Assembly: GCA_951406725.2 (NCBI GenBank)
Contig: OX597814.1
Coordinates: 82,460,001 to 82,524,000 of the forward strand
Source of the DNA: Octopus vulgaris
Taxonomy: Eukaryota
Length of the DNA stretch: 64,000 nucleotides
Direction of reading: 5' to 3'
Each line of letters begins with the position of its first letter. Positions within the stretch are counted from its first letter, which is position 1. Under the pieces are notes generated by a model that saw only the letters and a program-made list of their open reading frames with translations, had not been told where the DNA came from and did no database searches. Below, in pieces: positions 2,296 through 55,656 of the stretch. A program made the translations under genes and the position numbers.

Positions 2296-5200
2296 CTAAA
2301 AAAAAAATAAAAAAAATAAAAAAAACCACATAAATCTCTGTTGAGTGGTTTTGAAAAGAAGTGAGAAATGTATCTTCATTCTTTCAAGTCACACATATAC
2401 TCCTGAAAATTATACTGTTTATTATTGAGTTTAAATCCTACAGAAATCAAGCTTTGCCTGTCATTCCTCCAGGACTGGTAAAATAAAACACTACTTGGAT
2501 AGACGATATCAACTAACACCTTCCCTCAAAATTATTGGCCTCATGCCTAAATTGTTATCATCATTGTCATCATGATCACAGAAGTTCAAATCCTGTTGTA
2601 GTCAACTTTGTTTTTCATTTTTCTGAAGTCAATAAAATAAGTATCATTCAATTCACTGCTAAGAAAGTTCACCATGAGGGAAGTTTACCAAGAAAATATA
2701 TCCATAGTACCTCACCATTAATAGTTAATCTATTTTATAGCATAAAAAGCAAACAAAAAAAAAAACAACAAAAAAAACCAACAAAAAAAAACGGTGTATT
2801 GATGACGCTGAACTTTAACTTTTCCTGTAGTGAACTGATGATGGTGAACTTTCCCTGTGGTGAATTGATGACAGTGAACTTAGTGGGCATGTCTTTTCAG
2901 GATTGATAGAATAAAGTATCTGTCAAGCACTAGGGATTGAGTAATTGACTGTATGCTCCCCTTAAAACTAATGGTCTGGTGCCAAAATTAGAAAGAGCTA
3001 TAATAATACTTATTTCTATAGTGGATGGAACATGTGGAAGAGGAAGACTTAGGAAGACATAGGATGAATTACTGAAGGATGACCTCCAGACACTGACCCT
3101 CTCACATGAGATGACAAAGGAACAAGATACCTGGCATCTTGCTGTACTCAAGAAGACCTGTCCTCCACAGCAGATGTGTTAAGGTCGCTACCCCTGGTGA
3201 AGAGGATTGGCCTGCAAGAGTTATGTGCCAATGCCATGTAAAAAGAATTTGTGCCAGTGTCACGTTAAAAACATTCAACAAACACTGTAAAGTGGTTGGC
3301 ATTAGGAAGGGCATCCAGTCACAGAAACCAAACCAGTCAGACTAGAACTTGGTGCAGCTCTCTAGCTTACCAGCTCTGGTCAAATCATTCAACCCATACT
3401 AGCATGGGAAATGGATGTTAAGAGATTATTATTATTGTTGTTATTATTATTATTATTATTCAGTAGTTTTATTTTTATAGCGTGCTTTCACTTCACTACC
3501 GAGTGCAGCTTTGTGTGCCTTGGGTATGTGCTGTGATTTGTTGTGATGCTCTGATGGTTATTGTATGGAAAGTGTTCTGTGTAGGATGTGTGCAGTGCCT
3601 AGTAGTGCAATTTTCTGTATGTTATATGTGTTTGTAAGTCCTGGTGTTTTTGTTATGTATTTGTCTGAATATTTTTTTATCATGCCTAATGCACCTACTA
3701 TGATAGGAATTGTTTCTGTTTTCAGATTCCACATTCTAGTTACCTCTATTTCCAGGTCTTTGTATTTTGAGAGTTTCTCCATTTCTTTTAGAGACACGTT
3801 GTCATCTGCCGGTATTGATACATCAATTAGAAAGCGTTTTTTTCTTCATGATCTCTGACAACTATATCTGGTCTGTTGGCCTTAATTTCTCTATCTGTGT
3901 GTATCGGCATATCCCAGAGTATGGTTGCTTTCTCGTTTTCTGTGACCTTTTCTGGTGTGTGCCTATACCATCTTTTTCTGTTGTTATTCCATAATGTTGG
4001 CATAGCTTCCAATGTATGTAGGTTCCAACTCTGTCATGTCTGTGAATATATTCCTTCTTAGCCAGGACTGGGCAGCTAGAGATAATATGATTTATTGTTT
4101 CTTGTCCATCTCCACATATTCTGCAGTTACTTGTTATATTTCTTTTCATTACATGTTTTTGGCAATTTCTGGTGGGGAGGCTTTGGTCTTGTGCTGCAAT
4201 TAAAAATCCCTCTGTTTCTGCTTTGAGTCCTGAGCTTCTCAACCATTGCTGGGATTTTTCTTTGTCTATTTCTTTTGCGTTTAGTTTAGTCCAGTATTTA
4301 CCATGAAGGGGCTTTTCTTGCCATCGTTTTATCATGGTTCGTTGCTGTTCTATTTTTAGTTTGGATTTCATTTGTTTTATAGCTTTTGTTGTTTCTTCAT
4401 CTTCTTCTTCTTCTTCATATTTATTAGGTGGTATGATTTCTTGTTTGTATTTGTCAGCTTCCTTAAATACTGAGAACAGTATTTTGTTTTGCTCGTGTTT
4501 TGCCGCTATTTGTATCAGTCTTCCTTCCTTCTGAAGGAGATATTTTTGCAGTCCTATGGTGGTTATTTTATAGTAGTTTTCCAGCTGTATAAGGCCTCTA
4601 CCACCTTCTATACATTGTATATATAGTCTTTCTATGTCAGATTTTGGGTGATGCATCCTAGATCCTGTCATTATTTTTCTTGTTTTCCTATCTATTTTGG
4701 TCAGTTCATTTCGTGTCCAGTTAAGGATATTGTAGCTGTAACTTATAACTGGGACAGCTAAAGTGTTAATACCTATTATCTTGTTTTTAGCATTGAGCTC
4801 TGTTTTTAGTATTGATCTAACTCGTTTATAATATTCTTTTTTTATTTTCTCTTTCATTTGTGTGTGTTGTGTCTTATCTAGTTCATGGATTCCTAAGTAT
4901 TTGTAAGTTTGGCTTTGGTCTAATTCTTTTATTTCATTGGTTTTATCTAGTGTGATGTTGCTACTCTTAACTAGTTTTCCTCTTTTCATGGTTACTTTGG
5001 CGCATTTTTCTAATCCAAATTTCATATCTATTTCTTTGGTAAATCCATGAACTGTCTTTAATAGTGTTTCCAGCTGTTTGTCATTTGCAGCGTATAGTTT
5101 TAGGTCATCCATATATAAAAGGTGGCTGATCGTTTTGCCGTAACATTTATATCCGCATCCAGTTCTATTTAGTATATCAGATAGAGGTGACCGTGCCAAG

Positions 5201-6732
5201 CAGAAAAGGAGTGGAGAGAGTGTGTCTCCCTGGAATATTCCTCTTCTAATGGGGATGTCTTTGGTTTTCATGAGTCCCTCTTTTGTTTGGAGGTGTAGGA
5301 CTGTTTGCCATTTATTCATAGAGTGCTCTATGAATTTTATGATTGTTGGTGCTACTTTGTTAATGGCTAGTGTTTCGAGGATCCATGTGTGGGGGATGCT
5401 ATCAAACGCCTTTTTGTAGTCAATCCAGGCCATACTGAGGCCTTTCTTCTTTCTGTGGCTGTCTTCAGTTATGGCTTTATTAATCATTAGTTGATCTTTA
5501 CAGCCATATGAGCCTTTGCGGCATCCTTTCTGCTCTTCTGGGAACAGTTTGTTTTCGTCCAGGTGCTTGTTCAACCTTTGCGATATCACTGCAGTAAATG
5601 CCTTGAACATTGTAGGGAGGCAGGTTATTGGTCTGTAGTTTTCTGGTTTTGCTGTCTCATTTGATTTGGGAATTAAGATGGTTTTCCCCTTCGTGAGCCA
5701 TTCAGGCATTGTCTCTGGCTCTGCTAGTATGCTGTTAAAGTTTTCAGCCAGCTTTTTGTGCATTCCTGTTAGATATTTCAACCAGAAGTTGGGGATCTTG
5801 TCATGCCCAGGTGCCTTCCAGTTGCTTAGTCTTTGCAGTGCCTGGGTGACCTCTTCAGTTGTTATGGGGGTCCAAAGTTGTTCAGATGCCGAGTTTGTTA
5901 TTTTGATACTCCTTTTTTTGGTTGTTCGTTCACCGACCATATTTCTCTCCAGAATTCTTCCAATTCTTCTGCCGTTGGTGCTGCAGTGACTTCTATTTTA
6001 TTTTTGCCAAGTTCTTGGTAGAACTTTTGGGGTTGGAGTTGAACTTTTTGTTTTGTTCAAAGAAGCGCTGGCGTTTCTCGTACCGGCGGATCCTTTGTGC
6101 TTTGGCAAGGATATCTTGCTTCAGCAAATCTTTCTCTGTGATGTTATATTTGTGGAGTATTTTTGTTTTCTTTTTGTTGCTCAGTAGCGTTGATTGTTTG
6201 CTGATTTCATTAAGAATCGACAGATCTTTTCTCATTTTTTGTATTTTGTTTTGGATGTTATTTATCCACAGGGTTTGTTTGGGTGGTGGTACTCCTGTTT
6301 ATTATTATTATTATTATTATTATTATTGGCAAGCTGGTAAAATGCTTAGTGGTATTTCGCCTGAAGCTAGCTTCTGAGTTTAAATTCCACTGAGGTCAAC
6401 TATGCTTTTCAACCTTTTGGGGTTGATAAATTAGGTACCAGTGAAACACTGGGGTTAATGTACTCGACTAGTACCCTCCCCCCAAATTTGGAGCCTTGTG
6501 CCTTCAATAAAAAGGATTATTATTATTATTATTGGTGAGCTGTAGAATTGTTAGCATGCTGGATGAAATGCTTAGCGGCAATTCACCAGTTACTATGTTG
6601 AGTTCAAATTCTGCCAAGGTTGACTTTGCCTTTCATCCTTTCAGGGTGGATAAATTAAGTACCAGTTAAACACTGGGGTTGATGTAATTGACTAATACCC
6701 TCCCACAAGATTTCAGGCCTTCAGTAGAAAGG

Positions 6733-9700: not shown

Positions 9701-12700
9701 GATACTCTCTTGCCATTCTTGCTATTAAAAAATACAGTGATTCAGTGACTGACTTGTTGGAAATCTATAACCACTAGTGCCACTGCTCACAAAAACCAAA
9801 AGGCAGTGGAGTGACGTAAACAAAATGCCTTGAACTATTTAACTAAACTTTTCTTGGTTTTCATTTTTTTATGCTTTAGCCAAAAGAGGAAGGGCAGAGC
9901 ATATGACCTTTTTTAGGTTTTCCAAGATTGGGTGAGAGGAGGGGAAGAAGTTTGCAGACTAAAGACATGATCTGAATGCTTGCAACAGATTGGAATCTGC
10001 TAAAACCAGAGGAGAGGTAGGTGGTGGTGTTAAGCCAGACATCAGAGTAATTCCACCACCTATTCTAAATTCAGATATTGTCAGAGTTAACTTTCCATTT
10101 CAAGAGTGATGCTCCTTATTGTGTCCCATATTTCTGATTTTTGCTTTGTAAAAGTGCCTGTGTGGTGCTACATAAAAGCATCTATGCAGTGCCACATAAA
10201 AGCACCCAGCACACTTCATAAAGCGGTTGATATTAGGAAGGGCATCCAGCTGAAGAAACCATGACAAATTAGACTGGTGTCAGGTGGAGCTCTCCAGCTC
10301 TGGCCAAACCATCCAACCCATGCCAGCATGGACAATGGACATTAAATGTTGATAATGATGGTAATTTTACCAGGTTTGGTAAAATAAGTGCACTTACATA
10401 AACATATAGGTATGTGGGTATTTTGAAAATAACTCAAGGGGTGATGACTGTGCCCAGCATAGTTATGGGTTGTCCTTTGGCAAGGCATAACACCCATTCA
10501 GCCACCCTGCCAGGGATATAGCAGATTGGCAGATGTGATGAGGCAGTATAAGAGCTCAACTGAACCAACAGTGCTTCCTACATTGATGTTGAGCAGAGGA
10601 ATCCTAGAAGGTCAACGGTCAGGATCACCCAGGTCTATCAAGAGAGTAACTGCAACACATCCATTGTTGTGTAATCAGCTGATGAAAGACTCGTGATTCA
10701 AGCTTCCAATTCAAATATGAATAGTAGAACTGGGTAGCAACAGGGAGTCATGGGAATCTGTGCAAGCAGCACAACCAAGCTATATAAACATACAAGCAAA
10801 AACATGCACACATCCACACATGCATATACATGCATGCAAGCACAGGCAGTTTGTTTAATTCAAACTTTGAAGATTTTATTTTATGAATAGGATGTAAAAG
10901 AAAAGTAACAACAAACCTTTGAAAGAGATCTAATTCCAAAGGGAGACAAGAATTCTGTCTCACTGAATAGGTAACCCAGAATATGTTGGAGCTGTTCAGA
11001 AGAAACGAATGATAAAAATAGCTTGTTGTTGTCGATATGCACCTAAAAGAAAAGAAAAGAAAGCAATGAAGCAGCTGCAGCCATAGACTTTGAATGAAAC
11101 GGATATCTGGAGATAATTGATATATTAACCCTTTCATTACCAAGCTGGCTGAAACTGGCTCTGGCTCTGAGTACAAATGTCTTGTTTTCGTAAGTTTTGA
11201 ATTAAAATCTTCCACCAAACCTTAGTTACAATTTATGTTCCTAACACTAGCTGAATGATAATTAAGTTATTTTACTAAATTCTTTGTTATATTTAAAGTA
11301 ATTGAAAGAAACACAGAACATTTCAAAATAAATATAATAATGAAAGGGTTAACAGCTATTGTTATGGTTTAACTCCAGGTCAAGCATAATCAAGGAGACG
11401 TGTGATCAAAAGTATTCCAGTTGTAACCAACCTGTTTTTCTCTTTTTAAGCTCAGATTACATTGTCGAATTTCTCCCTTTCGTTTTTGTTTTATTAAAGA
11501 TGGTGAGATTTGGCTACTATCTTTAGCAAGTTCAGTGACATCATAGTATTTCCTTCATTGACTCATGTTGATGTACTTGTAGTGTATAGTGGTAACAACC
11601 TGGGTTGGCAAGATGCAGTGGTATTGTATGTAGTTGTAACTGCATACATTAGTGGAATGATGAAGAGGTAGTAATTATTGTTGTCTTACCCTAGGTCAGT
11701 CTTGATACAGCAGACCATTCCAACTGTGACCATACCACCTTTTATTCAGACATAGAATTATATTATCTAATGTACTCATCCTTTTTAAGTTTGGTAAAAA
11801 TATGATGTACGGGTGATTTAGCTGCTATTACTAGAAGTTGAGGGACTATGTAAAGACTTCCTAGTAGTAGGCAATGGTAATGGTAAAAGATGAAATATAT
11901 ATCAATTAATCAATGCAGTGTAGTAAGATGGCAGTGGTGGTAGTGGTTGTTAGTGTTGTTTTGTCCTAGATCAGCCTTAACAGAACAGATTTATGACTAA
12001 AAGCATGACCATCGCATTCCTTTTTTTTAAAGGGAGATTTAGCAACTGTTTCTCTCAGGGAAAGTGACCATTTAAAGGCTGTATGAAGTGTAGTGATAGG
12101 TGTATCCAATAGAGATACAGTGTAGATGCAGCTGTAGTTGTGTAACCACAGGTCAGCTCTGATCAAGCAGTCCTGTTGTATGTAGAAAGTTGATCAAACT
12201 ACCAGGCATGAACCACAAGTCTTAGTTATGCCATTATACCATGTGTCTACCTAGCTGAGGACAATAGAGCTTGCTCTGATACATAGTGACAAAATGTATG
12301 AGGTGCTGCAGCGTTGATAGCCTGGACATATTGCACTCAAACTACTATCAAGTTAATTTCTATATGCTTAGAAATTCTGGTGGTGGTTACAGTGGAAGTA
12401 GGCAAAATGGACTTGGTTAGACTATGAAAGTTGCTATTCCTCTGCTCTAATTGTTTCTGTTTTAGACTAGGGAAGCTATTCATGCCACAGCTACTTCTGG
12501 TGTGTCTGTGTTTTTTATGTTTGTCTAGGTCAGTGGTTCTCAACCATTTTGTCCCAGTGGACCCATTTCATTGCTATTTTACTCAGTGGGTGGGATTCTC
12601 AAAAACATTCGATATCAAAAACTCCTATTATACTTTTGTGATTAAATATTATTAGGAATTGTATACAAAATTGTTTAAATATTTTGTGTATAACCAGCAC

Positions 12701-13266
12701 ATAAGTTGCAAATAATATAACCATCTTATCTATATATATAAAACTGAGAATGTGTGTGTGTCTGTCTGTTACCATTCTGTTGATATGCTTATGTCTTTTT
12801 CTTGGGATGTCTACTGTATCAGGAATTTAACCCACATGGATATACATAGGATTGCACCTAAAGACTTACGCTCATGGATCTATGTAGGATTGCACCTAGG
12901 GATTCATTCTTTGGTTTCTATAACTTTGGAAAGTTGAACTATAAACTTCTTTGCTTCTGTCTCCTTCTCTCTTTCCATCTCCTTATTCTTTTACTCCCTT
13001 CCTCAATGTTGTCAGTGATGTATAGCATTCTCATTTTCTATATCTTTTTTTTCTCAATTTGTCTCTGATGACAGAATATCCCATACCTGGGGATATCCCA
13101 GAAAGAGCTGTAAGATTTTAAATTCCTTCCTGTAACAATATTGTATATGACTTGAGATGTTTGCTTTACCATAATGTTTGATGCCCTGTTTAACAATTAT
13201 ATATATATATATCGATATGTAGATATGTATATATTTGTGTGTGTGTATGTATATGTATGTGGGTGT

Positions 13267-13318
<52 letters not shown>

Positions 13319-13848
13319 TATTGGTGAATTGAAGAAATGGAGCTGAATGCAGATTGAACAGAAATCGTTTTATTTCATTCTACACGTGTTTCGAAAGGCA
13401 CAATTTACCAAAATCCGATTGAATAATGGGACCATATTGTGTCTTTCTCTTCAGGAAGAAATAGGAAATCCGTTGGAAAAAACAAAAACAGAACAGAGGC
13501 GGAGCAAAAACAAATCGAACTAGGCTCCTAAGAGCCCATGGCGAAACTGTTTATCAGTGTATGTTGAGAACCGGTGGCTGAAGAATTTAGCGGGTCAGGC
13601 ATCGGTCAATCATGTGGGTGAGGGTGTGTAGATGTTCTTTGTGACCGAGAATAAAGTTCTGACTATTTAAGGAATATTGGATGTTTTATAAGGGGCGAGA
13701 AAAAATCTACTTAGAGACGTGTGTGTGTATACTGTTCTATATATGTGTGTGCTGGCGTAGGGGTAGAAAACATTTTTTGTGTACGTGTGTGCGTTTGATC
13801 GTTCGGCTGTCAGTGGCTACTGCAGTGAGAACCGTTGGGTGGCAGAGG

Positions 13849-13882
<34 letters not shown>

Positions 13883-14633
13883 TATTATGTTTTATGTGTG
13901 TGTGTGTTCATCTAAGCCTGCCTTGTCAGGGAAACCCCCGTTGTGAAAGAACCAAGCCCCGTTTATCTTACAGGAGTAATTCCCCTTGCAGTGGTTAATT
14001 GTAGATATCTTAAAGGCTATTTCAGAATTTGTTACCAAGGGCTATGGGTGCCGGTATTATTTATAAACGCTATTTAAAAGCCAGATAAGTGTAACGCCGC
14101 CAATGAAATAAAACATCCAATATTCCTTAAATAGTCAGAACTTTATTCTCGGTCACAAAGAACATCTACACACCCTCACCCACATGATTGACCGATGCCT
14201 GACCCGCTAAATTCTTCAGCCACCGGTTCTCAACATACACTGATAAACAGTTTCGCCATGGGCTCTTAGGAGCCTAGTTCGATTTGTTTTTGCTCCGCCT
14301 CTGTTCTGTTTTTGTTTTTTCCAACGGATTTCCTATTTCTTCCTGAAGAGAAAGACACAATATGGTCCCATTATTCAATCGGATTTTGGTAAATTGTGCC
14401 TTTCGAAACACGTGTAGAATGAAAGAAACGATTTCTGTTCAATCTGCGTTCAGCTCCATTTCTTCAATTCACCAATAATATTTTAATTTCAATTATGTCG
14501 ATACCAACGCACGGTTGCAACACCATATGGTTGTACCTCCAACCGTGCTGTTTACTGCTGTGATTTTTGCTACCAAGGTATCGGTTAAACTTTTGATTAA
14601 TCTACTACAAGATTATTCATCTTTCTATTTCAC

Positions 14634-14682
<49 letters not shown>

Positions 14683-15261
14683 CAATGAAATTAGACATTA
14701 ATACAGTACAATAATTACAATCAATATGGTGAGATATAACTAAATAAATATAACAAGATATAAAAATACATTTACATTATAACTGACAGCTATTTCGGCC
14801 ATTAAGATAGGTATGTCTCATTTAACCTATTAGCCATATATTGCAGGTATAAATGAGACATTAACAAGAATATATTACGGCCTCTTCGGAGATTCTAATG
14901 CAAGTATGAGTACAAACCCTAAAATAATTTACATATAAATATGAATATGAGTGCATACATACTCATATTCTTACATACATATACATATACACAATAATAC
15001 AATATAAACAATATAAATCAATATACATCAACAAACACAATAATGTTCCATATTGAATGCCACAGCTCCTCAACCAAAATCAAGAAACCACAACAGACAC
15101 ACTCACACTCAATGCAGGAATATATATTAAACAGTTCAATATATTAAAATGTGTCACTTCACAAAAAGCCAATAAAGTTAATACCACCACCATAGTACCA
15201 TTCAAGGCAAATGGATAGATATATGTTATCCCATGGAGGGTTGAATTTACAACCCCTATCT

Positions 15262-15303
<42 letters not shown>

Positions 15304-15326
15304 GTGTGTGTGTGTGTGTATATATA

Positions 15327-15365
<39 letters not shown>

Positions 15366-15405
15366 TATGTATATATATATATATATGTATATATATATGT
15401 ATATG

Positions 15406-15436
<31 letters not shown>

Positions 15437-15457
15437 GTATATGTATATATATATATG

Positions 15458-15504
<47 letters not shown>

Positions 15505-17105
15505 ATGTATATATATATACATATCATCATCATCATCATCATCATCATTTAGCGTCCGTTTTCCATGCTAGCATGGGTTAGACGGTTCAACGCCAACCAC
15601 TCCGAGAGTGTAGTGGGTGATTTTATGTGCCACCGACACAGGTGCCAGACGAGGCTGGCGAACGGCCACGCTTGGATGGTGTTTTTATGTGCCACCGACA
15701 CAGGTGCCAGACGAGGCTGGCAGACGGCCACGCTCGGATGGTGTTTTTATGTGCCACCGACACAGGTGCCAGATGAGGCTGGCGGACGGCCACGATCGGA
15801 TGGTGTTTGTTACGTCCCCAAAGCACAGAGGCCAGTCTATGCGGTACTGGCTACGGCCACGTTCGGATGATTTTCTTGTGTGCCACCGGCACTGGTACCA
15901 CAAAGATACAAATTCCATTGATGTTCATCTATTTTGATTTGTTTTGATTTGATTTGATTTTCACTTGCCTCAACAGGTCTTCACAAGTGTCACAAGAAGG
16001 AAGGTATGCACAGGTGGACTGACTACGTCCCAGGTAGGGGCCACGGGTTATGGCCTGACTAGTCTTGCCGGGTCTTCGGATGGTGTTTTTATGTGCCACC
16101 GACACAGGTGCCAGATGAGGCTGGCGAACGGCCACGATCGGATGGTGTTTGTTATGTGCCCACAGCATGGAGGCCAGTCGATGCGGTACTGGCTACGGCC
16201 ACGTTTGGATGGTTTTCTTGTGTGCCACCGGCACTGGTACCACAAAGATACAAATTCCATTGATGTTCATCTATTTTGATTTGATTTGATTTGATTTTCA
16301 CTTGCCTCAACAGGTCTTCACAAGTGTCACAAGAAGGAAGGAAGGTATGCACAGGTGGACTGACTACGTCCCAAGTAGGGGCCACGGGTTATGGCCTGAC
16401 TAGTCTTGCCGGGTCTTCGGTTGGTGTTTTTATGTGCCACTGACACAGGTGCCAGATGAGGCTGGCGAACGGCCACGATCGGATGGTGTTTGTTATGTGC
16501 CCACATCACAGAGGCCAGTCGATGCGGTACTGGCTACGGCCACGTTCGGATGGTTTTCTTGTGTGCCACCGGTACTGGTACCACAAAGATACAAATTCCA
16601 TTGATGTTCATCTATTTTGATTTGGTTTGATTTGATTTGATTTGATTTTCACTTGCCTCAACAAGTCTACACAAGTGTCACACACTTGCCTCAACAGGTC
16701 TTCACAAGTGTCATAAGTAGGAAGGTATGCACAGGTGGACTGACTACGTCGCCGGGTCTTCGGATGGTGTTTTTATGTGCCACCGACACAGGTGCCAGAT
16801 GAGGCTGGCAAACGGCCACGATCAGATGGTGTTTGTTGTGCCCACAGCACGGAGGCCAGTCGATGCGGTACTGGCTACGGCCACGTTCGGATGGTTTTCT
16901 TGTGTGCCACCGGTACTGGAACCACAAAGATACAAATTCCATTGATGTTCATCTATTTTGATTTGGTTTGATTTTTACTTGCCTCAACAGGTCTTCACAA
17001 GTGTCACACGTGTCACACACTTGCCTCAACAGGTCTCCACAAGTGTCACACACTTGCCTCTGCCTCAACAGGTCTTCACAAAGTGTCACACACTTGCCTT
17101 TGTAT

Positions 17106-17136
<31 letters not shown>

Positions 17137-18495
17137 CTTTATTTTAAGCAGCAGAAAATTCAACAAAATCTGTTACTCTGAGTTTCTCGTTGCCGTTCAT
17201 CAGACAGTTTTTGCTAGAATGGAACATATATATTAATTCAATCTATACTCTTACAAACACTACACCTTTAAAAAGAAATGGACTTGTTTGATTGGCCCTT
17301 TAGAAAAAACGGTCAATCTTCGAGCGATAAACAAAAAGGTCAAAAATATATGTATATATATATATAAAAACTTATAAAAATTATAAAATCCGAGGAAAAT
17401 ACCGAGGAAAAAACCTGTTGCCGTTAATGAAGACAGTACAAATTAATGCATAGAAATTAAACCTGTTATAAATACTGCAATACATATTTATATTAAAATC
17501 CACATATATATATCAACATACACAAAAGGATGCGCGTAAACGCCATACATACACATACAGACGTATGAATATGAATCTAAATTATACACATAAAAGCATG
17601 TGTACATATATTCACGCAAACCGTCTCGCACTTGCGTGCGAGACGGTTTGCGTGAATATATGTACACATGCTTTTATGTGTATAATTTAGATTCATATTC
17701 ATACGTCTGTATGTGTATGTATGGCGTTTACGCGCATCCTTTTGTGTATGTTGATATATATATGTGGATTTTAATATAAATATGTATTGCAGTATTTATA
17801 ACAGGTTTAATTTCTATGCATTAATTTGTACTGTCTTCATTAACGGAACATTTTTCCTCGGTATTTTCCTCGGATTTTATAATTTTTATAAGTTTTTATA
17901 TATATATATACATATATTTTTGACCTTTTGTTTATCGCTCGAAGATTGACCGTTTTTTCTAAAGGGCCAATCAAACAAGTCCATTTCTTTTTAAAGGTGT
18001 AGCGTTTGTAAGAGTATAGATTGAATTAATATATATGTTCCATTCTAGCAAAAACTGTCTGATGAACGGCAACGAAACTCAGAGTAACAGATTTTGTTGA
18101 ATTTTCTGCTGCTTAAAATAAAGCATATTACTCTACCACTGGTATCTTGATGTTGTAACATTGTAATTGCCGTATAAACTGTTGTTTGAATATAAGCCAG
18201 TGTTGCCAGTTGTTGCCTTGCCTCTTTGGGTTGTATCTCGGGTTGTGCCTCTGTATCTCTGTGCTGTTGAGGTTGTGGCAGTATCTATCTGTATCTCCTC
18301 TCTCCGCCTCTTTGGGTTCCGTGGCGGAACTAGTGAGTGTGCGAGCCGTTCGGGACGAGCGACGACGGGCGATTCCAGTCCGTTCCGTAACAATATATAG
18401 CCGTATATATATATTATATATATATATAGCCTATATATCACATATATAGTATATATATACCCATAGCATGGATATATACGGATATAACGATGATA

Positions 18496-18562
<67 letters not shown>

Positions 18563-21500
18563 TATATATATGTAATATGTATATATATTTGACAGCCAAA
18601 TGTGGAGTCCTGTATGGAACAGTGCTATTGATGTTTATAGCCCCACGAAGACATCTCTTCCAGCTAGCTAATGATACACATTCCGATTAGTATTTGCGAG
18701 GGGAAGTCATCGCTTCTATCCCTAGCCTTACATGATACACATGGACTCAAGTTCCTGGGTGGTTACCCGCACTCAACGTATGCTAATCACCAGCTAGTGA
18801 TGGAAACTCACCCCACTCACAAAATATTATATGCTTTTTCCAGCTAGTGATTAACACATGCTGAAGAAGGGTAACCACCCAGAAACTCGAGTCCTTCATC
18901 ATCATCATCATCATTGTTTAATGTCCACCTTCCATGCTGGCATGGGTTTGACTGAGGACTGGTGAGCCAGATGGCTGCACCAGGCTCAGTCTGATCTGGC
19001 AAAGTTTCTACAGCTGGATGCCCTTCCTAACGCCAACCACTCCAAGAGTGTAGTGGGTGCTTTCACATGCCACTGGCATGAGGGCCAGTCAGGTGGTTCT
19101 GGCAACAACCACGCTCAAAAGGTGTTTTTTACGTGCTACCTGTATGGGAGCCAGAAATGTTGTTTCTCACGTGCCACCAGCACATGTCCCAGTAAGGTGA
19201 TGCTGGCAATGATCACACTTGAATGGTGCTTTTTACATGCCACTGGCACAGGAGCCAATCCATGGCCCTGGCAATTATCACGTTCAGATGTGCTTTTAAT
19301 GATCCACTGGCATGAGTGCCAATCAGGCAGTACTGTCATTGGCCACATCAGCAATTTTGATTTCACTTGCCTCAATAGGTCTTTGCAAGCAAAGTTTATT
19401 GTCCAATGAATAAGGGGTACTCATAAGTGGACTCATTACACCCACTGGCATAGGCCATGGGCTATGGTCTCATTTGGCTTGTCAGGTCTTCTCAAGCACA
19501 GCATATCTCCAAAAGTTTCAGTCACTAGTCATTGCCTCAGTAAGGCCCAATGTTCGAAGGTCATGCTTTACCACCTCATCCCAGGTCTTCCTGAGTCTAC
19601 CTCTTCCACAGGTTCCCTCAACTGTTAGGGTGTGACACTTTTTCACACAGCTGTGCTTATTCATTCCCAACACATGACCATATCTGCACAGTCATCTATC
19701 TTGCACACCACATCTGATGTTTCTTAAATCCAACTTTTCTCTCAAGGTGCTTACATCCAGCATAACATACTGGCTTCATTCCTTGCAAGCTTATGCATGT
19801 CCTCAGCAGTCACAACCCATGTTTCACTGCGATGTAGCATGGCTGTTTGTACACATATGTCATACAGTCTACATTTTATTCTGAGCGAGAGGCCTTTTGT
19901 CACCAGCAGAGGTAGGAGATCTCTGAACTTTGCCCAGGCTATTCTTATTCTCGCAGCTACATTTTTAGAGCATTCACCCCTGCTACAGACTTGGTCACCT
20001 AGGTAACGGAAGCTATCAACTACTAGTTTTTCACCCTGGAATGTGGCAGAAGCTGTTCTCTGCACATTTTCATTGTTTATAGTACCTAAGCATTTGTCGC
20101 ATACAAAAACTATCTTCCTTTGATATTGCTGCACCTCTTATGTGTCCATAGCTTACACTAGGTACATATTATGGTGTTTCTACCTATGCCTTTTCTAAAG
20201 ATCGAGCAGGGCAATTTACTTGAAGGGATTTGTGATTTGTTTGCCTTCCTACTTATTAAGACTTTGATTTTAGCTAAGTTGACTCCAAAGCCCTTCGATT
20301 CTAATTCTTGCTTCCACGCCTGCAACTTTTCCTCTAGTTCTGACAGTGACTCAGCAATTAAAGCAAGGTCATCAGCATAGAGGAGCTCCTGGGAGCATCC
20401 TGTCTTGAATTCTTCTGTTATTGCCAGGAGGACTATGATGAATAAAAAGGGGGTTGAGGACTGATCCTTGGTGGACCCCTACCCCTACCAGAAATTCTTA
20501 CTGACAGCATCCCTGTACATGGCTTGTACAGCTCTCATTTACCATTCCTCTATCCCTAGTTTCCACATTGACCACCAGATAAGGGATCAGGGGACCCTGT
20601 CAAAGGCTTTCTCCATGTCAACAAAAGCCAGGTACAAAGGTTTATCTTTGGCTAGGTATTTTTCCTGCAGCTGTCTTACCAGAAATATAGCATCAGTGGT
20701 GCTTTTCCCTTGTACGAACCCAAATTGCATCTCGTCTAAACTGACTCTCTCCCTAATTACCTGATTCAACAACTTGATACTTCTGTAATTATTTGTATCT
20801 AAAGTGTCACCTTTACCTTTGTAGCAGTTGACTATCATGTTGCTACACCAGTCATTGGGTATGACTCCTTCGTGTATCACCTGGTTAACTATGCGGGTGA
20901 CTAGCTATAGCCGACACTGCCAGATATTTTGAGCATCTCTGCAGTAATTTCTGATGGGCTGGGGGCTTTCCCTGTCGTCATACTTTTAATTGCTTTATCT
21001 ACCAAGGTACTGTCAACTCGGATAACTGGTCCCTCTGTTGGGTCGACATTTGGCAGACTCTCCAAACCTCTCTCTTTGCATCCTCATTTGGCGTAAGTGA
21101 ACCATCATCCATGTGAACACATTTCTCTCCTACATCACAATTCTCTCTCACACACTGTCTTGCAACACGAAATACCTCAAGTCTTTGGTCTTCACGGCGC
21201 AGAACATTGGCAAAGTTTTTCTTATCTGCTTCCCCTCTGGTTAAATAAACCTGTCTCCTAGCTTCCCTTCAAGCAATCTGATACAATTCCCTGCTTCCAT
21301 CATTCTTCCAGTCCTTCCAAGCCTGTTTCTTTTCCTTAATGGCCCTGTCAACAACATTGTTCCACCACCACATTAACTTGGGTCAAGAGGGGACTTTGCA
21401 CCATCCGTAGATCTGGTCAGTGGCCCTCAGCAGGTTGTCCCATAAAAACTTCCAGTTGTCTTCCACATCATGTGATGCTATATCCCCCTCTATTTCATCA

Positions 21501-22566
21501 AAAGCTTTGAGTAATACGTCTCTAAATCTGTCCATTCGCAGGATCTTTAAGCTTCCAGACCCTTCTTCTCCATGCTGGTTGTCTTCTGGGCATCCACTTA
21601 GCCCTGATCCTGAAGTTGCTAACTACTAGTCTATGTTGTGGGGTACATTTTTCGCCTGGGAAGGTTTTGGCATTTATAAGCAGCGATCTTTCCTTTTTCC
21701 TGGCAAGGATGTAGTCAATTTGGCTAGTGTGCCTACCAGATCGGTAGGTGACTGGCAGGTTTCCTGAAGTTAGTATTGCAAACCATAAGATCATTTGTAT
21801 CACAGAACTCCAGCAGCCTGGTTCTCTCCATATTGTGGGAACCAAAACCATAACCTCCATGTATGCCATAGGAGCCCCCTGCATGTTGTCCAACATGTCC
21901 ATTGAAGTCACCAGCCACAAAGAGAAGGTCCTTGTCAATCGTCAATGAGGTAGTCTGCAAGAGGGTGTCATAAGATCGGTCTTTCTGTCCATCAGGTTTT
22001 CTGGGAAGAGTGGAATACAGTTTATCACAGGTCTGCTCTATCAGAAATGACCTGGGGATAAACAATAACAACTTAATGTTGGTATTAATAGTATCGTTTG
22101 TTAATTTAGTATATGTATAATGATAAGATTAATAGTAATATCTGTTATAGTAATACCATTTGTAACATTAGATAACAAAGATAATAATAATTTGTACCTT
22201 GCTACTGCTGCAAGAAGCATCACTCAGGACAACAAAAAGCTCAGGATAATTCATCCTTATTGATGAAAGATCAATAACAGTTGTAGCAAGCAAAGGAACA
22301 AGGCCTACTAGTGATCGTATGCAGAGTGGAATGATTGTGTCAGATTCTTGTGAAAGCAGCATATCATAGAAGAATTTATCGTCCTCATGCCAAAATCCTG
22401 GAAAAGTGAGAAAGTATTACAACTACAACAGACAGAGTAGTCTTAATGCTTCAAATACAAAACACTAATATGGCATGATTAAAAAATAACCAGTTCATAT
22501 CCATACTGTACTGCAAATGGTTGGTGATAGGAAGGGCATTAAGCTGTAAAAATCATGCACCCTCCT

Positions 22567-22605
<39 letters not shown>

Positions 22606-25600
22606 ACAGTATATACAACAACAAAAACTGGAACACCACTGCTTTCAGAAGGAGCCTCTAAATCAGGGTTCTTTAATCTTTGTATGATTCCAGACTCCCA
22701 AAGGATTGTTATTCACTGTGGCTCATGACATCCCTTCTTTAGACTTTCAAAAAAAAAATCATCCTCATTACCATCAGTCCTATCAGTTGCCAGTACTTGA
22801 AAGTATGGGTAACAAAATACTGTCTCATCACAACACCACTGTTAACCAACATTAGCACCAATGTTTCTGCAGAGAACCTCAACAACATAAAGCCAGAACA
22901 AATAATATCTTTATTCACTGCTCTAGAAATTTCATTACTCCACAGCTCTTTGTCTGAAGCTCGAACAATTCTGCCAGCTCAACACTCTAATTGAATTATG
23001 TGACAAAACTATATATTATCACTCACTGGACATCACTATTGCAAATTTCAAATCACTAGGATTCATAAGGACTGTCTGTTAGTAAACCCATAATCTGAGC
23101 AATTATTGATACAGATAATATACATATCACCAGCTGTTTAGATTCAGGATTATCAATGAACAAATATATATTAGTGACAGAGACAGTATTAAATCAGGAA
23201 GTAATACTTATCAGCACTTAAATGTGGATGTTCTGTTAGAGAATAAACTATATTGCAGTAGTTACCAGGACGGAAACTCTCCTATTGGCTGTTTGACTCG
23301 TTTATATCATTAGTGAGGAAATAAATCCCCACTACCTCCAACACTGAGACCACTAGATCATGTGATTTCAACCTTGTTTGGTCTTGACTGCTAGAGGCAA
23401 CAGCAATTCATATCCCCACCACTGATATATATATTGACAGTGCCAGAACAGGAACTGGTGTCATGATTAGCCGGTTAGCTTGTAAAAAAAATATATTAGC
23501 AACAGAGGCATTATTAATACCAAGAGGTAATATCTATCCCCACTTAAAAGTGGATGTTCTATTAGACAAGATCAAACAAAGTCAAAATCATGTGATCTGG
23601 TGGTAGTGGAGATTTATCTTCCCACTAGCTATATAAACAAGAAGCCAGTATGAGAGTTTCTGTCATGGCAACTATCGCAGTATAATTTGTTCTAATAGAA
23701 CATCCATGTTTAAGTGGGAACAAATATTACTAATGAACAATCCTGACGAAAGTCTACTTTCCCTGCTAGCTTAAAACTTCCAGCAGAAATGTCAATAAGT
23801 GGTTTTTAAAAATGAAATGAAATGGTAAATTATTTTCTTAGTTTTGAAAATATGTTCTAAATAAAATAAAAATAAAATGCCCCCCCCCCCTCACTCACTC
23901 ACCCTCTCTTTGTGTCTGACGGCCTCAAAAATGTCCCACAAGCTAATTATTATATGCAAACCTACATAATAAATATACAAATTTGACAAATTTAACTATT
24001 TCCCTGTAGATTGAAAAAAATGATGTGGCTGTGTGGTAAGTAGCTTGTTTACCAACCACATGGTTCCGGGTTCAGTCCCACTGCGTGGCACCTTGGGCAA
24101 GTGTCTTCTACTATAGCCTCGGGCCGACCAAAGCCTTGTGAGTGGATTTGGTAGACGGAAACTGAAAGAAGTCAATAGTATATATGTATTTATATATATA
24201 TGCGTGTGTGTGTTTGTGTGTCTGTGTTTGTCCCCCTAGCATTGCTTGACAACCGATGCTGGTGTGTTTATGTCGCCGTTACTTAGCGGTTCAGCAAAAG
24301 AGACCGATAGAATAAGTACTGGGCTTACAAAAGAATAAGTCCCGGGGTCGAGTTGCTCGATTAAAGGTGGTGCTCCAGCATGGCCACAGTCAAATGACTG
24401 AAACAAGTAAAAGAGAGAAAAAAAGAGAGAGAGTCTGTATCAATTTTTGAACAGTCAGAGGTGTCTACATCACTTGACCACTCCCTGACAAATAAGTAGC
24501 CAATTTGTTTATATGCACAAAAAATCTAGTGGCTTCAAAGAACTATAAGTATTCAACACTTTAAAGAAAATGAACTTACCAGCTTTGTTAGTAGATTGAG
24601 ATCCATTTTCAGCTATAAGTAAAAAATGTCTAAAAAATTGTGTTGCTATATCTGCATAATCTGGGTCAGTTTTAATGAGCTCAATAGCCATTTCAAACAT
24701 TTTCACACAAAAAAATGCCATCCATCCAGTGGCATCAGCCTATAGAAGAGATTAATCAAAATATTTGGTAAGCATCTCAGAAATAATAACTGAAATTATT
24801 GTTTTTTTTTTAAAAAGTTATGTTGAAAGTTAATTTTCACCAAAAAATGTAACACAAAATACAACCTGAGAATAAGCATAAGTCTAAATAAATTTAAAAA
24901 TAACTATTGCTAAAATTCCTTTCATTCACAAGGAGAGGTAATTGAAAGTATGACCAAAAAAATTTTCTTATGGTTAGGATACCAATTTAACTTAGGTAAC
25001 ACTCAAATGATTTGATGTCTATTCATTGTATCAATACCTTGTGAATGGAATTTGGTAAAAACAAACAGTGCAGGAGTTCATTGTATCTATATGTACACAT
25101 ATGTGTGTATGTATACCTGTGTATGCAAGTATGTGTGTATATAGATGTGCATAATGTGCTTGTGCTTACAGTTACAGTCGTTAAAACAAAACTGATCAAA
25201 AACAAAACCAGTACCAGACTGAAATAATTACTGGGATTAATATGATAAACAGAAAAAAAAACCCAAAACAAAAGAACTTAGCTATAGCCCAACAACTGAA
25301 ATCAGCAATGGATAAAATGAACAGAAACATGTATAATTAAATACTATGCAATAACACAACAAAACAACTGCAGTAGATTTGAAGTCAAGAATGATAAGCT
25401 GACTGCTTAGATCTTCATTTTACTTCTGTAAAGCTTATATTATGTAGGAAATGAGTAAATTATTCAAATTCACAAGAAAGTTATTTAAATTTTGAGGCAC
25501 AATTAACATGCTCAAACTTATTTAGCAGTTAAGGTTATATTCTATCTAATGGAGCAGATGTATATGAAATATAACATCTATGCATGCACACTTGTATATC

Positions 25601-51879: not shown

Positions 51880-54800
51880 AATAGAAATATTAATATTTCT
51901 AAGTCTCTCTAAAGGAGACTACAGCAGCGGTACTGGATATTAATAGTTATTGCCAAGCTAACATGGCAGTCCAGAAAAATAGGACAAATGCTGCCATTGA
52001 TTAGCTCCAAGAGGCCATCACCTCTAGCTAGCTATGTGACACACGAACCTGTGTCCATTATAACCTTTGATCAGGGGAGGTCAGCTGCTTCCCCATGCTG
52101 GTCTGGCATCTACAGACTAGTTTCAGGCTATTTGACCCTTATCAATGTAGAGTAGCCAAACTCAGCAGGTGTCACTACTGACCGTCTGTTCGAAGGTTTA
52201 TTTACCTAAAATTCAGTGGAATACATCCACTGGTTTTCAAATATATATATATATATATTTACATGTATATATAGATGTACAATAGGCTTCTTTCAGTTTC
52301 CATCAAGCAAATCCACTCATAAAGTTTTGATTGACCCAGAGCAATAATAGAAGACACTTGCCCAAGGTGCCATGTACTGGGATTGAACCTGAAACCATGT
52401 GGTTAGGAAGCAAACTTCTTAACCAAACAACAAACATGCTTTCACACAGATCTTGTCTATAACATTTCAATCATAGTTAACCAAAAAGGGTATAGTAGAA
52501 AACACTTGGCTAAAGGTGTGTGTATTGAGTTTGAACTTGGAACCTGTTATGATCACAAAGCAAAGTTTTTAACCATATGGCCAGGCTCGAGTCCAAATAT
52601 ATCTCTTTTGCAAATTCAGATACTTAATCGTGAATAGTTGAGTGGGAATATTAACAATGGGATGAATGCTATTCTTACCATTAAATATTCAGCAATACAT
52701 TTTCAGCAAGATAAAAAGGAAAAGGTACAATGAACACAATAAATTCAATCAGAAAAATTTGGTACAATTATGTCATCTTGACAAATAACAGGTATTTTTC
52801 TTAGTTCATGCATGAGTGACTGAGAATAGGGAGTGCATTCAGGTGTAAAAAAAAAAATCTCACAATCATGTCAAAAAGTTAATGACATTCAGTGTGTAAA
52901 AAGTATATAAACAAACATGCCATTAAAAATGTTTATAAGGGAAAATATTGAAATACGAGGAGTGTATGAAAAGTTTTGAGCCTAACCTAGAAACAGGGCT
53001 GCAAGGTAGCTGAAACAATTTTTTCTGGTAAGTACAGTCTTTTTGAAGTATTCTTGCTCATTTTCATGATTCTGATATTTTATTTTTTTTGTTACAGATT
53101 TTTGAATAAACAAATGACGAGGTTACAAGGAAAATGGAGAAAACTGAGTATCGTTCTGTCATAAATACCTTCATTTGAAAGGTATGATTCCATCAGAAAT
53201 CCATGAAGATATGGTGAGAACCTTAACAGACAATGCTCTTTCATATGTATGCAACTGTCAAATGCTGGGTAATGAATTCCAGTGTGGCAGGGAGAGTGTG
53301 GAAGATGATCCCACACCAGGGAGGCCTCCAATTGCAACCACCGAGGACAACATTGACTTTGCTTTTGGTATGATAATGCAAGATCATCGAATATCATGTC
53401 GCCAGATAGCTGAGAGACTGGGTATCTCAAATGAAAGAGCAGACAACATTGTGACAAAAGAACTTGGGTTCTCAAAGGTTTCTGCAAGGTGGGTCCCTTG
53501 CCTTTTGACTCCTGAACAAAAACGCACCAGGTGCACTTTGTCCACGAGCAAACTGGAACCGTTTGAAGCCGATGAAGAGAATTTTCTTGCTTGTTTTATT
53601 ACTATGGACGAAAGTTGGGTTCATCACTACCAGCCTGAAACCAAAGAACAATTAAAGCAGTGGAAGCACACATTTTCTCCTACCCCAAAGAAGGCCAGCT
53701 CATTCCTTCAGCTGGCAAGGTCATGGTGTCATTTTTTTTTTGATTCTCAAGGTGTCTCGCTGATCGATTACCTTGAAAAAAGTCACACCATGACAGGGTT
53801 GTATTATTCTCAGCTACTGTAATGCCTCCAGGAAGCAATCAAAGAAAAAAGGCCAGGAATGCTCTCCAGAGGAGTCCTTTTTCATCATGACAATGCTCCA
53901 GCCCACACCTCAGTGGTTGCAATGGCAACAATTCGTGATTGTGGATATGAACTTGTTCCCCATCTGCCTTATTTGCCAGACTTAGCCCCCTCTGACTTTC
54001 ATCTATTCCCAAAAATGAAAAAAGCCCTGGCTGGTTGCCATTTTGCCACTGACAATGACGTCATAGACACTGTAGGAAGTTTCTTAGAGTCTCAAACAAA
54101 GGAGTTCCTCTATGCCGGGATAATGGCACTTGCACCGCTGGAGAAAGTGTTCAGCCATCAAAAGGGACTATGTTGAAAAATAAATCATCAGAAGTCTTGT
54201 ACTATGTTTTGTTTTTTTGAGGCTCAAGACTTTTGAGACACCCCTTGTATTGTACATTTTAGCACTGCATAAATATTTGTTTCAAATACAAACTTGTAAA
54301 ACAACAAAGATAAAAAATACTTCAAATGAATTACCTGAGGCCCAGTAAGCCCAAATAACCTCTCTTTAAGTATAGTATCTTTTCCATTCCACAATGCTAC
54401 AGATGCACATAATTTGGCTTTATAATCGGACCAGCCAAACAAGCCATCTTCTCCATGAAGGTAAACTGTGTTGAGAGAGTCATGATGTGTACAATATTTC
54501 CAACTGTTTAAATTATATAGAGGGAGATGAAAAAAATGAAATAGAAAAATAATTAAACATGTTAACATTTTTCATGTTTTAAATACTTTTCACAATCTCC
54601 TTTTCTTTAACGATAAATTGAACTTAAGTATTTTCAAGAATTGCTACACACACACATGTGCATAAATATGCATATACACATGTGTATGTATGTCATTGTT
54701 CAGTTTTATTTCAAGATTTCTTGCCAGTAAAGAACCAGTTTCTAACCTAGATTCAAGGCTCCTTCATTGGAATTTCAACATCAACAAAAGGGTATTTTTG

Positions 54801-55618
54801 TTTGTGTGTATGTATGTATATACGTATGTATATGTGTGCATGCGTGTGTATGTATGTATATGTGTATATCTATGTCTATGTATGTATATGTGTATATCTA
54901 TGTCTATATACACACATATATATATATATATAGACGCAGACCCAGGAAAACCTGGGACGAGGTGGTGAAGCACGACCTTCGAACTTTAGGTCTCACTAAG
55001 GAAATGACTAGAGACCGAGACCTCTGGAAGTGTGCTGTGCGCGAGAAGACCTGGCAGGACAAGTGAGTCCATAACCCGTGTATGCATACCTTCCCTTCTT
55101 GGGACACAAAACTCTACTTGTGAAGACCTGTTGAGGCAAGTGAGGATCAGAATCGAAATTGATCAATGGAAATTGCAGATGTGTTACCAGTGCCGGTGGC
55201 ATGTAAGAGAACCATCCATTGGCGACCGTTGCCAGCGCCGCCCCGACTGGCCTCGTGCCGGTGGCACGTAAAAAGCACCATCCGTTCGTGTCCGTTGCCA
55301 GCCTCGCCTGGTCCCCGTGCCGGTAGCACATTAAAAGCACCATCCGTTCGTGGCCGTTTGCCAGCTCTGTCTGGCACCTGTGCGGGTGGCACGTAAAAAG
55401 CACCCACTACACTCACGGAGTGGTTGGCGTTAGGAAGGGCATCCAACCATAGAAACACTGCCAGATCTGACTGGGCCTGATGAAGCCTTCTGACTTCACA
55501 GACCCCAGTTGAACCGTCCAACCCATGCTAGCATGGAAAATGGACGCTAAATGATGATGATGATGATATATATATATATATATATATATATTTGTGTGTG
55601 TGTATGTATATATATATG

Positions 55619-55656
<38 letters not shown>

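Follow-up and report, generated by a model that had tools for sequence, protein, structure and literature searches.

Clustered hammerhead ribozyme motifs in an octopus intron as probable truncated ends of Penelope-like elements

Penelope-like element (PLE) insertions show a 5′-truncated inverted copy, a tail of 30–40 bp at one end, and a bias towards (TA)n (PMC8557442), and head-to-head palindromes of PLEs have been described (PMC3846280). Members of the Hydra clade share the preference for (TA)n, the 5′-truncated inverted copy, and a canonical hammerhead near the 3′ end, with a helix III palindrome interrupted by one letter and, in many members, a basal mismatch in helix II. The (TA)n preference is not diagnostic of the Hydra clade by itself, because Naiads have it as well (PMC8557442). 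Thirty-one recently active PLE families have been annotated in Octopus vulgaris, and Hydra-1_Obim is a published (TA)n-inserting, hammerhead-bearing element (Craig et al. 2021, PMC8557442). The available part of a paper on minimal type I hammerheads (PMC4209133) describes numerous families of sequence in each genome, most of them solo or in opposite-strand pairs from truncated PLEs, with dual motifs 100–700 bp apart; cephalopods are not mentioned in that part. Retrozymes have been reported from a mussel (Cervera and de la Pena 2020, PMC7229834), and it has been argued that they derive from PLE pLTRs (bioRxiv 10.64898/2026.07.22.740005). No publication dealing specifically with hammerheads of cephalopods came up in a literature search that covered sources other than subscription journals, Repbase, and Dfam, and the supplements of 10.64898/2026.07.22.740005 and Cervera 2014 might list the families described here; a text search of papers on repeats of the octopus lineage found no occurrence of ribozymes.

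The window analyzed here is a 64,000-nucleotide stretch of the O. vulgaris genome (GCA_951406725.2, contig OX597814.1, positions 82,460,001–82,524,000). Its initial annotation had listed eight hammerhead motifs, intact or decayed, from about five families with differing stems, in intron 14 of a gene. All eight were recovered, each no more than about 10 nt from the position first assigned to it, and they belong to five insertions of unrelated sequence, A–E. In B, D, and E, two inverted arms stand head-to-head with their ribozymes facing outward, and A and C have one arm each. The initial annotation did not note that three single insertions account for six of the eight motifs, one motif per arm. 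The insertions are, with high probability, 5′-truncated 3′ ends (pLTR modules) of endonuclease-bearing PLEs, which would have been copied into (TA)n by target-primed reverse transcription. The intron number holds when coding exons are counted: tblastn with an Octopus sinensis protein places 14 coding segments upstream of the intron and the next one at 11042–10917, and GT and AG are present at the intron ends. The features are as follows, with hammerheads given from the start of the core to the cleavage site.

11043–22197, minus strand: host intron, located after coding exon 14 of a YMR196W-like gene (glycoside hydrolase domain)
13058–13197, plus strand: insertion A as far as recognized, one decayed type I hammerhead and 85 nt leading into (TA)n; single copy observed
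13065–13112, plus strand: hammerhead A, core intact, G·G mismatch at 15.2–16.2, helix II a 7-bp hairpin, loop AGCT
13198–13312: (TA)n/(TG)n tract, toward which A and the left arm of B point with their 3′ ends
13313–13848, minus strand: left arm of insertion B, terminating 68 nt beyond its hammerhead, in (TA)22
13454–13381, minus strand: hammerhead B-left, core intact, 5-bp proximal helix II inside a 55-nt arm, loop ACGT
13849–13889: head-to-head junction of B, an A-run and (TA)10
13890–14636, plus strand: right arm of insertion B, comprising an upstream piece (13890–14105), a 379-bp part common with the left arm, the hammerhead, and a 151-nt extension
14343–14416, plus strand: hammerhead B-right, core intact, 5-bp proximal helix II inside a 55-nt arm, loop ACGT
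14637–14681: (TA)22 tract, faced by the right arm of B and by C
14682–15266, minus strand: insertion C, a single arm flanked by two (TA)n tracts
14889–14785, minus strand: hammerhead C, U4C, helix II arm of 86 nt, loop AGCT
17132–18156: insertion D, a 1-kb palindrome with its center near 17633
17203–17174, minus strand: hammerhead D-left, core intact, 2-bp helix II behind an A·A mismatch (positions 10.1–11.1), helix III with an interrupted palindrome
18059–18086, plus strand: hammerhead D-right, like D-left except for a 2-nt deletion in helix II
18404–18588: (TA)n/(CA)n tract, toward which the left arm of E points
18590–18896: insertion E, an old head-to-head pair with arms of ~65 bp
18776–18744, minus strand: hammerhead E-left, core destroyed, recognized solely via homology to E-right
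18861–18893, plus strand: hammerhead E-right, core intact, loop TCGA, helix I broken beside the cut site

The sequences CUGANGA, GAAA, and UH of a type I hammerhead are present together with helices I, II, and III in B-left, B-right, and D-left. One defect apiece is found in A, C, D-right, and E-right, and five of the eight motifs are damaged overall. A descriptor of intact hammerheads has three matches in the window, every one inside the cluster region, and this number was equalled in none of 1000 shuffles of the region and none of 100 of the whole window. A second descriptor, written so as to admit A, matches A and both arms of B; any match to it occurred in 0 of 2000 shuffles of the region and 1 of 200 of the window. 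A looser descriptor that does not require helix I has, as raw counts, five matches inside the region and eight outside. Since the looser descriptor also matches outside the region, D-right and E-left are putative hammerheads that rest on homology to their partner arms. The folding z-scores of monomers are unremarkable (−0.15 to −2.55), and the minimum-energy fold is not clearly a hammerhead in six of seven. The covariance-model check of the whole window against Rfam, which the initial annotation had proposed, did not identify a hammerhead: there was no match at the gathering threshold, and the 64 matches at E ≤ 10 are hairpin-driven miRNA and similar chance matches, none of them to a hammerhead family. 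The motifs resemble those in the available part of PMC4209133 in their topology and in the palindromic 15.2–16.2 pair and loop 3; by contrast, helix II has 6–8 bp and a loop there, and it is extended into arms of 55 nt in B and 86 nt in C.

The paired arms are 99.2% identical over 379 bp in B (three differing columns), 97.8% in D, with several indels, and ~70% in E. The 151-nt extension of B is confined to the right arm, and it is longer than the published PLE tail of 30–40 bp. The left arm of D reaches (TA)n 37 nt past the cut site, and the right arm has about 30 extra nt, a putative tail that aligns weakly to the tail of its relatives. The right arm of E is directly adjoined by a (CAT)n-headed repeat, and its core is preceded by 7 nt that are reverse-complementary to those following the left cut site. 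The A-run and (TA)10 between the arms of B make two separate insertions possible at that position.

Copies of family B were compared using the query 13900–14630 in contigs from 4 of 24 sequencing runs. Several related organisms contain the family as a diverse repeat; two of the runs gave 1693 and 1737 distinct contigs, where contig depth does not equal copy number. Segment 13690–13848 of the left arm is the element's own upstream sequence, equal to loose ends before 14108 in runs X11 and X14. Other copies have loose ends on either side of 14105/14108 and joints that connect the upstream piece to the arm, and we infer an internal deletion at this position in the right arm. At its inner end, the right arm of B continues in other copies into the inner sequence of the left arm; therefore, the arm is a truncation and not a fixed repeat. 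Four contigs from run X3 terminate in (TA)n behind 14481, like the left arm of B, without the extension. Both arms of B have C at 14207, as opposed to T in 96–99.6% of the family depth, which points to a single event or to conversion between the arms. None of the 34 variable places lies in the 35-nt core and proximal stems, compared with about 1.6 expected, a difference that is not significant.

Similarly to non-LTR retrozymes (PMC7229834), the insertions combine type I hammerheads with a low GC content and no coding capacity. They could be stray monomers of such elements, which are tandem type I hammerhead units of 150–450 nt that make circular RNAs; the short palindromic helix III, the lack of an ORF in the insertions, and the presence of B in contigs from putative RNA runs, X14 among them, agree with this. 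However, no tandem array contains a ribozyme, and every paired copy is inverted, none being arranged head-to-tail. Furthermore, the three listed joints of B all skip forward and none back, although contigs lose rare forms, and the upstream piece, inner sequence, arm, and extension of B sum to more than 900 nt. The retrozyme option that the initial annotation had offered next to PLEs is therefore improbable.

A search pattern for the D ribozyme, in which helices I and III were fixed, identified 120 metagenome loci, with 124 of the 138 matches belonging to two near-identical variants; a metagenome scan with the B ribozyme pattern had no matches. Two motifs are present in 26 of the 120 loci, and all 26 pairs are head-to-head. 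Tails could be scored in 22 of these pairs: 20 have one tail, two have none, and none has both. A 714-residue Hydra-type ORF, which is Hydra-clade PLE coding sequence, is matched by 11 of the 120 loci, one of which is the query's own. The pairing of helix II in the D-type relatives is kept by compensatory change across four stem types, and one X11 contig of family B has another helix III palindrome, with a double change that preserves self-complementarity. Covariation of stems in other copies, another check proposed in the initial annotation, was thus found for D-type relatives and for one contig of B; for A, C, and E, a single locus each was available for comparison.

The likeness of D to the 120 loci is restricted to ~50 nt around the ribozyme. 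Helices I and III of D are identical to those of Hydra-2_aMil (PMC8557442) except for one loop letter. D and E depart from the Hydra clade in having A·A instead of U·U as the basal mismatch of helix II, and the octopus insertions described here lack an ORF. The distance from the ORF end to the motif is ~100–190 nt in Hydra-type loci L022, L013, and L064, whereas in D the 425 nt upstream of the core are non-coding. The ribozyme of Hydra-1_Obim equals none of the five. Judged by ribozyme likeness, D and probably E appear to be Hydra-like, and A, B, and C can be assigned as PLE-type, at no finer rank than PLE. The PLE-type nature of the hammerheads, as first proposed, is supported by the anatomy of the insertions together with the D-type relatives beside Hydra-clade coding sequence.

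The D-type loci also bear on two other origins of the palindromes. Long near-perfect terminal inverted arms and TA-rich targets would fit fold-back or MITE-like DNA transposons that carry a hammerhead by accident in their terminal inverted repeats. Nevertheless, the arm lengths and spacers vary among B, D, and E, the ends are asymmetric with the extension on one arm, and the arm of B is a truncation in other copies. Hydra-type loci show the same geometry with variable junctions (38–95 nt between the motifs). A DNA transposon is very improbable. Palindromes are difficult to assemble, and no listed contig covers the whole B stretch, which might indicate assembly artefacts that duplicated single copies. 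This is extremely unlikely, because the two arms differ in each of B, D, and E and end asymmetrically, and because the same geometry appears at 26 loci in independent short-read contigs.

As the initial annotation had claimed, the truncated PLE ends favored here do not encode protein. Of 76 stop-to-stop ORFs taken from the five insertions, none matched Pfam at the cut-off (six weak matches), a weak negative given that Pfam also missed three of three genuine Hydra-type ORFs. Searches of the window using tblastn and a profile of 60 Hydra-type proteins found no PLE coding sequence (best E 1.4). Such an absence would be expected of truncated ends. A linked ORF with a telomerase-like RT and a GIY-YIG endonuclease, as had been suggested, was not found in the window; Hydra-clade coding sequence stands beside the D-type motif in the 11 metagenome loci. 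Among the 120 listed of 2522 matches to a Hydra-type protein, none has an Octopus label, and the link of the five insertions to an octopus RT is indirect. It had also been proposed that the intron is a (TA)n-seeded landing zone for several non-autonomous families that are probably unannotated. The landing zone stands; non-autonomy is not established, because 5′-truncated ends of coding PLEs look identical. The proposal on annotation is right in part: PLEs of octopus, including Hydra-1_Obim, are already described, and the five sequences were not found in the supplement of PMC8557442 (0 of 12 short motifs; line breaks might mask matches).

A (TA)6+ tract is located 37–220 nt downstream of the cleavage site in six of the eight motifs, whereas the background for such proximity is 5.5% of positions window-wide and 37% within the TA-rich region. 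The earlier statement that most motifs abut (TA)n applies to the 3′ ends of the elements and has to be read against this regional background. By extension from the literature, a GIY-YIG/RT protein would cut AT-rich DNA, and reverse transcription would begin just 3′ of the ribozyme, at either of two sites, with or without a tail, and would halt early, leaving an inverted truncated second copy. Every insertion would divide one TA tract in two, so that targets stay available, which may explain the local pile-up.

The ribozymes are probably passengers at this locus. Two intact cores, B-left (13454−) and D-left (17203−), are on the transcribed strand of the host. Duplex prediction pairs 74 of 74 nt of the ribozyme with the opposite arm in B and 28 of 30 nt in D, within duplexes of ~380 and ~490 bp. 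The prediction is therefore that each of the two ribozymes lies hidden in a long duplex with its own antisense arm, which is transcribed first. The two cores and the predicted duplexes might instead reflect recruitment of the cluster by the host, as intronic ribozymes or long dsRNA editing substrates that regulate the YMR196W-like pre-mRNA, and RNA editing is heavy in cephalopods. However, the insertions are young, as indicated by arm identities of 97.8–99.2%, damage affects five of the eight motifs, and sequestration is predicted for the intact ones. Recruitment is very improbable. Within the reading of the insertions as PLE ends, we put forward a tentative extension, itself rather unlikely: B, and C, would be a very abundant non-autonomous retroposon of octopus, longer than 900 nt, mobilized by PLEs and with an extended helix II arm that is missed by Rfam models. 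In the same extension, head-to-head insertion would silence the ribozyme in read-through pre-mRNA, where the antisense arm always comes first, so that inverted pairs would be tolerated in introns and intact sense-strand singles purged.

The element type, ribozyme variants, inverted structure, and target bias are all already published, and the five families are octopus members of an already known kind of element. The insertions are likely to be ordinary truncated PLE ends and not a novel class of element. They add five hammerhead-bearing PLE end modules of octopus, one of them apparently of high copy number, and the locus is a compact example of pile-up at TA tracts. Beyond cataloguing, the locus provides a testable idea, that the head-to-head geometry may neutralize sense-strand ribozymes in introns.

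The hammerhead cluster is located in an intron of a YMR196W-like gene on the minus strand of the window, the exons of which are up to 100% identical to the Octopus sinensis protein. Its placement in intron 14 by the initial annotation is right if coding exons are counted, as 14 coding segments precede the intron. All eight motifs claimed there were located in the window sequence; however, self-comparison groups them into five insertions (A–E) rather than eight elements. B, D, and E are inverted pairs with left and right arms; A and C are single arms.

Features of the window discussed here
22197–11043, minus strand: host intron, with GT and AG ends
13311–13689 and 14108–14485, inverted: arms of B, 99.2% identical over 379 bp in self-comparison
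17132–18128: palindrome of D, 97.8% in self-comparison
15523–17100, 18894–19604, and near 886, 10360, 32006, 44955, 51176, and 55083–55654: abundant (CAT)n-headed repeat
3862–5997, minus strand, next intron: non-LTR retrotransposon, still fairly intact, with a 711-aa open frame that matches RVT_1 and zf-RVT

The (CAT)n-headed repeat has internal tandem units of 62 bp and 341 bp. A GC-rich segment to the right of the tail of D (18153–18387), which starts with TGTAAC and ends with GTAACA, resembles a solo LTR; no target duplication was seen around it. The interrupted frame at 53148–54176 (+) resembles that of a Tc1/mariner transposase. In the host exon 1309–2295 (−), conserved blocks are separated by a long low-complexity insertion of E/K/R, the flanks of which correspond to residues 712–736 and 830–909 of the O. 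sinensis protein.

With a descriptor in which the core, helices I and II, and a palindrome in helix III were all mandatory, three intact motifs were identified window-wide, all in the cluster (14343+, 13454−, and 17203−), a count reached in 0 of 1000 shuffles of the region and 0 of 100 shuffles of the window. Permitting one deviation adds a low-complexity match at 6907 and the motif of C (14889−), which carries U4C, a naturally occurring variant with reduced activity (PMC3088659). A long hairpin (14805–14870) branches within helix II of C, and the stability of the segment is above that of shuffles (z −2.55). Motif A has an intact core and a G·G mismatch in helix III; the descriptor written to admit it matched none of 2000 region shuffles and one of 200 window shuffles. 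The right motif of E has an intact core and a broken helix I, which is disrupted by an adjoining copy of the (CAT)n-headed repeat, and those of D-right and E-left were identified solely through homology to their partner arms. A looser descriptor also matches at eight places outside the cluster region; the matches at 23743+, 34606−, 47712+, and 62805+ are weak, have a poorly formed helix I, lack (TA)n in their vicinity, and are probably due to chance. The Rfam covariance search proposed in the initial annotation reported no hammerhead in the window at either the gathering threshold or E ≤ 10.

The ribozymes face outwards in all three inverted pairs. In B-left, the cut site is followed by 68 nt and the arm ends in (TA)22, while B-right extends 151 nt further before another (TA)22. 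D-left ends in (TA)n 37 nt after the cut site, and D-right has about 30 extra nucleotides. The motifs of E form an older inverted pair; the 7 nt that precede the right core are reverse-complementary to the 7 nt that follow the left cut site, which yields an ancestral helix I of 7 bp. Tracts of (TA)6 or longer occur within 37–220 nt of six of the eight cut sites, against a background of 5.5% window-wide and 37% locally. That the elements encode no protein is borne out: 0 of 76 open reading frames of A–E reached the Pfam cut-off, and no remnant of a Penelope-like element (PLE) protein was found within the window.

Insertions of endonuclease-bearing (EN+) PLEs contain an inverted 5′-truncated copy and a one-sided tail of 30–40 bp (PMC8557442); PLE insertions also occur as head-to-head palindromes (PMC3846280), and truncated PLEs have hammerhead pairs on opposite strands, 100–700 bp apart (PMC4209133). 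The anatomy of the cluster matches that published for EN+ PLE insertions. The alternative in the initial annotation, that the insertions are retrozymes, implies head-to-tail units of 150–450 nt and circular RNA (PMC7229834; bioRxiv 10.64898/2026.07.22.740005); it is not supported, as no tandem array of the window bears a ribozyme.

Family D is tied to the Hydra clade of PLEs by the likeness of its ribozyme. In ribozymes of this clade, the helix III palindrome is interrupted by one letter and the base of helix II is often mismatched, and (TA)n is given as the target for almost every member, Hydra-1_Obim from O. bimaculoides among them (PMC8557442 supplement). Helices I and III of D are identical to those of Hydra-2_aMil except for a loop letter, and E resembles Hydra-type motifs by eye (PMC8557442); A, B, and C were assigned to no clade. 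The pattern of the outer helices of D occurs in at least 120 metagenome loci, and the similarity is confined to about 50 nt. Among the matches listed, two near-identical variants make up 124 of 138, helix II pairing is kept across four stem types, and 26 loci contain two motifs, head-to-head in every case. Four of these 26 are cut by an end; in the 22 scorable loci the tail is on one arm in 20, on neither in two, and on both in none. One locus has a 714-aa open reading frame downstream of the motif that is similar to Hydra proteins (PMC8557442), matched by 11 of 120 loci among those listed. Locus L001 (2441–2529) and 25 other listed loci are minimal fold-back units with a tail on a single arm; the inversion point is within a few tens of nucleotides of the hammerhead 5′ edge, and 38–95 nt separate the 3′ half-motifs.

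Parts of the B stretch 13900–14630 are present in 20 of 24 listed sequencing runs, with six organism codes, and 13 of the 24 contain at least half of its words. The numbers of matching contigs in four runs (1693, 1737, 12, and 90), in which depth is not a copy number, indicate that B is a diverse multi-copy family. Of its 34 variable places, six lie distally in the helix II arm; the 35 nt that make up the core and proximal stems contain none, which is not significant alone because only about 1.6 were expected; in one contig the helix III sequence differs with the palindrome retained. Four contigs terminate in (TA)n behind 14481, which corresponds to the end of the left arm. Loose ends flank 14105/14108 on both sides, one being inner sequence of the left arm, and the joints skip forward, which indicates that the apparent spacer is probably further sequence of this element, from which an internal part has been deleted. 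At 14207, C is common to the two arms and 96–99.6% of the family have T, which favours their putative origin in one event; two events are allowed, given the A-run and (TA)10 between the arms. The A-run (13849–13865), which is about 17 nt long and lies where B-left ends internally, resembles a poly(A) tail if read on the strand opposite the ribozyme, and may be slippage beside (TA)n. Since more than 900 nt are visible without an open reading frame, family B may be non-autonomous.

In vitro, a PLE protein cuts both strands of AT-rich DNA and begins reverse transcription at two internal sites, which bound the tail; insertion is independent of ribozyme cleavage (PMC11167929). The cluster probably arose by five PLE-type insertions into TA tracts of the host intron, and each split tract would have provided fresh targets for later ones. 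For ribozymes in the sense orientation of the host gene, transcription would reach the antisense arm first. In predicted folds, the B-left ribozyme is within a duplex over 74 of 74 nt and that of D-left over 28 of 30 nt. The ribozyme of C, which carries U4C, is the only one on the sense strand that is unpaired.

The families were initially considered probably unannotated. Active PLEs have already been described in octopus, with 31 recently active families (PMC13282606; activity also in PMC8967140), and neither account mentions ribozymes. The sequences of A–E, looked for as short motifs, were not found in the PMC8557442 supplement, and Repbase, Dfam, or other supplements may contain them. A–E probably add to an element type already known in octopus, and their ribozyme copies in the host intron would be harmless passengers.
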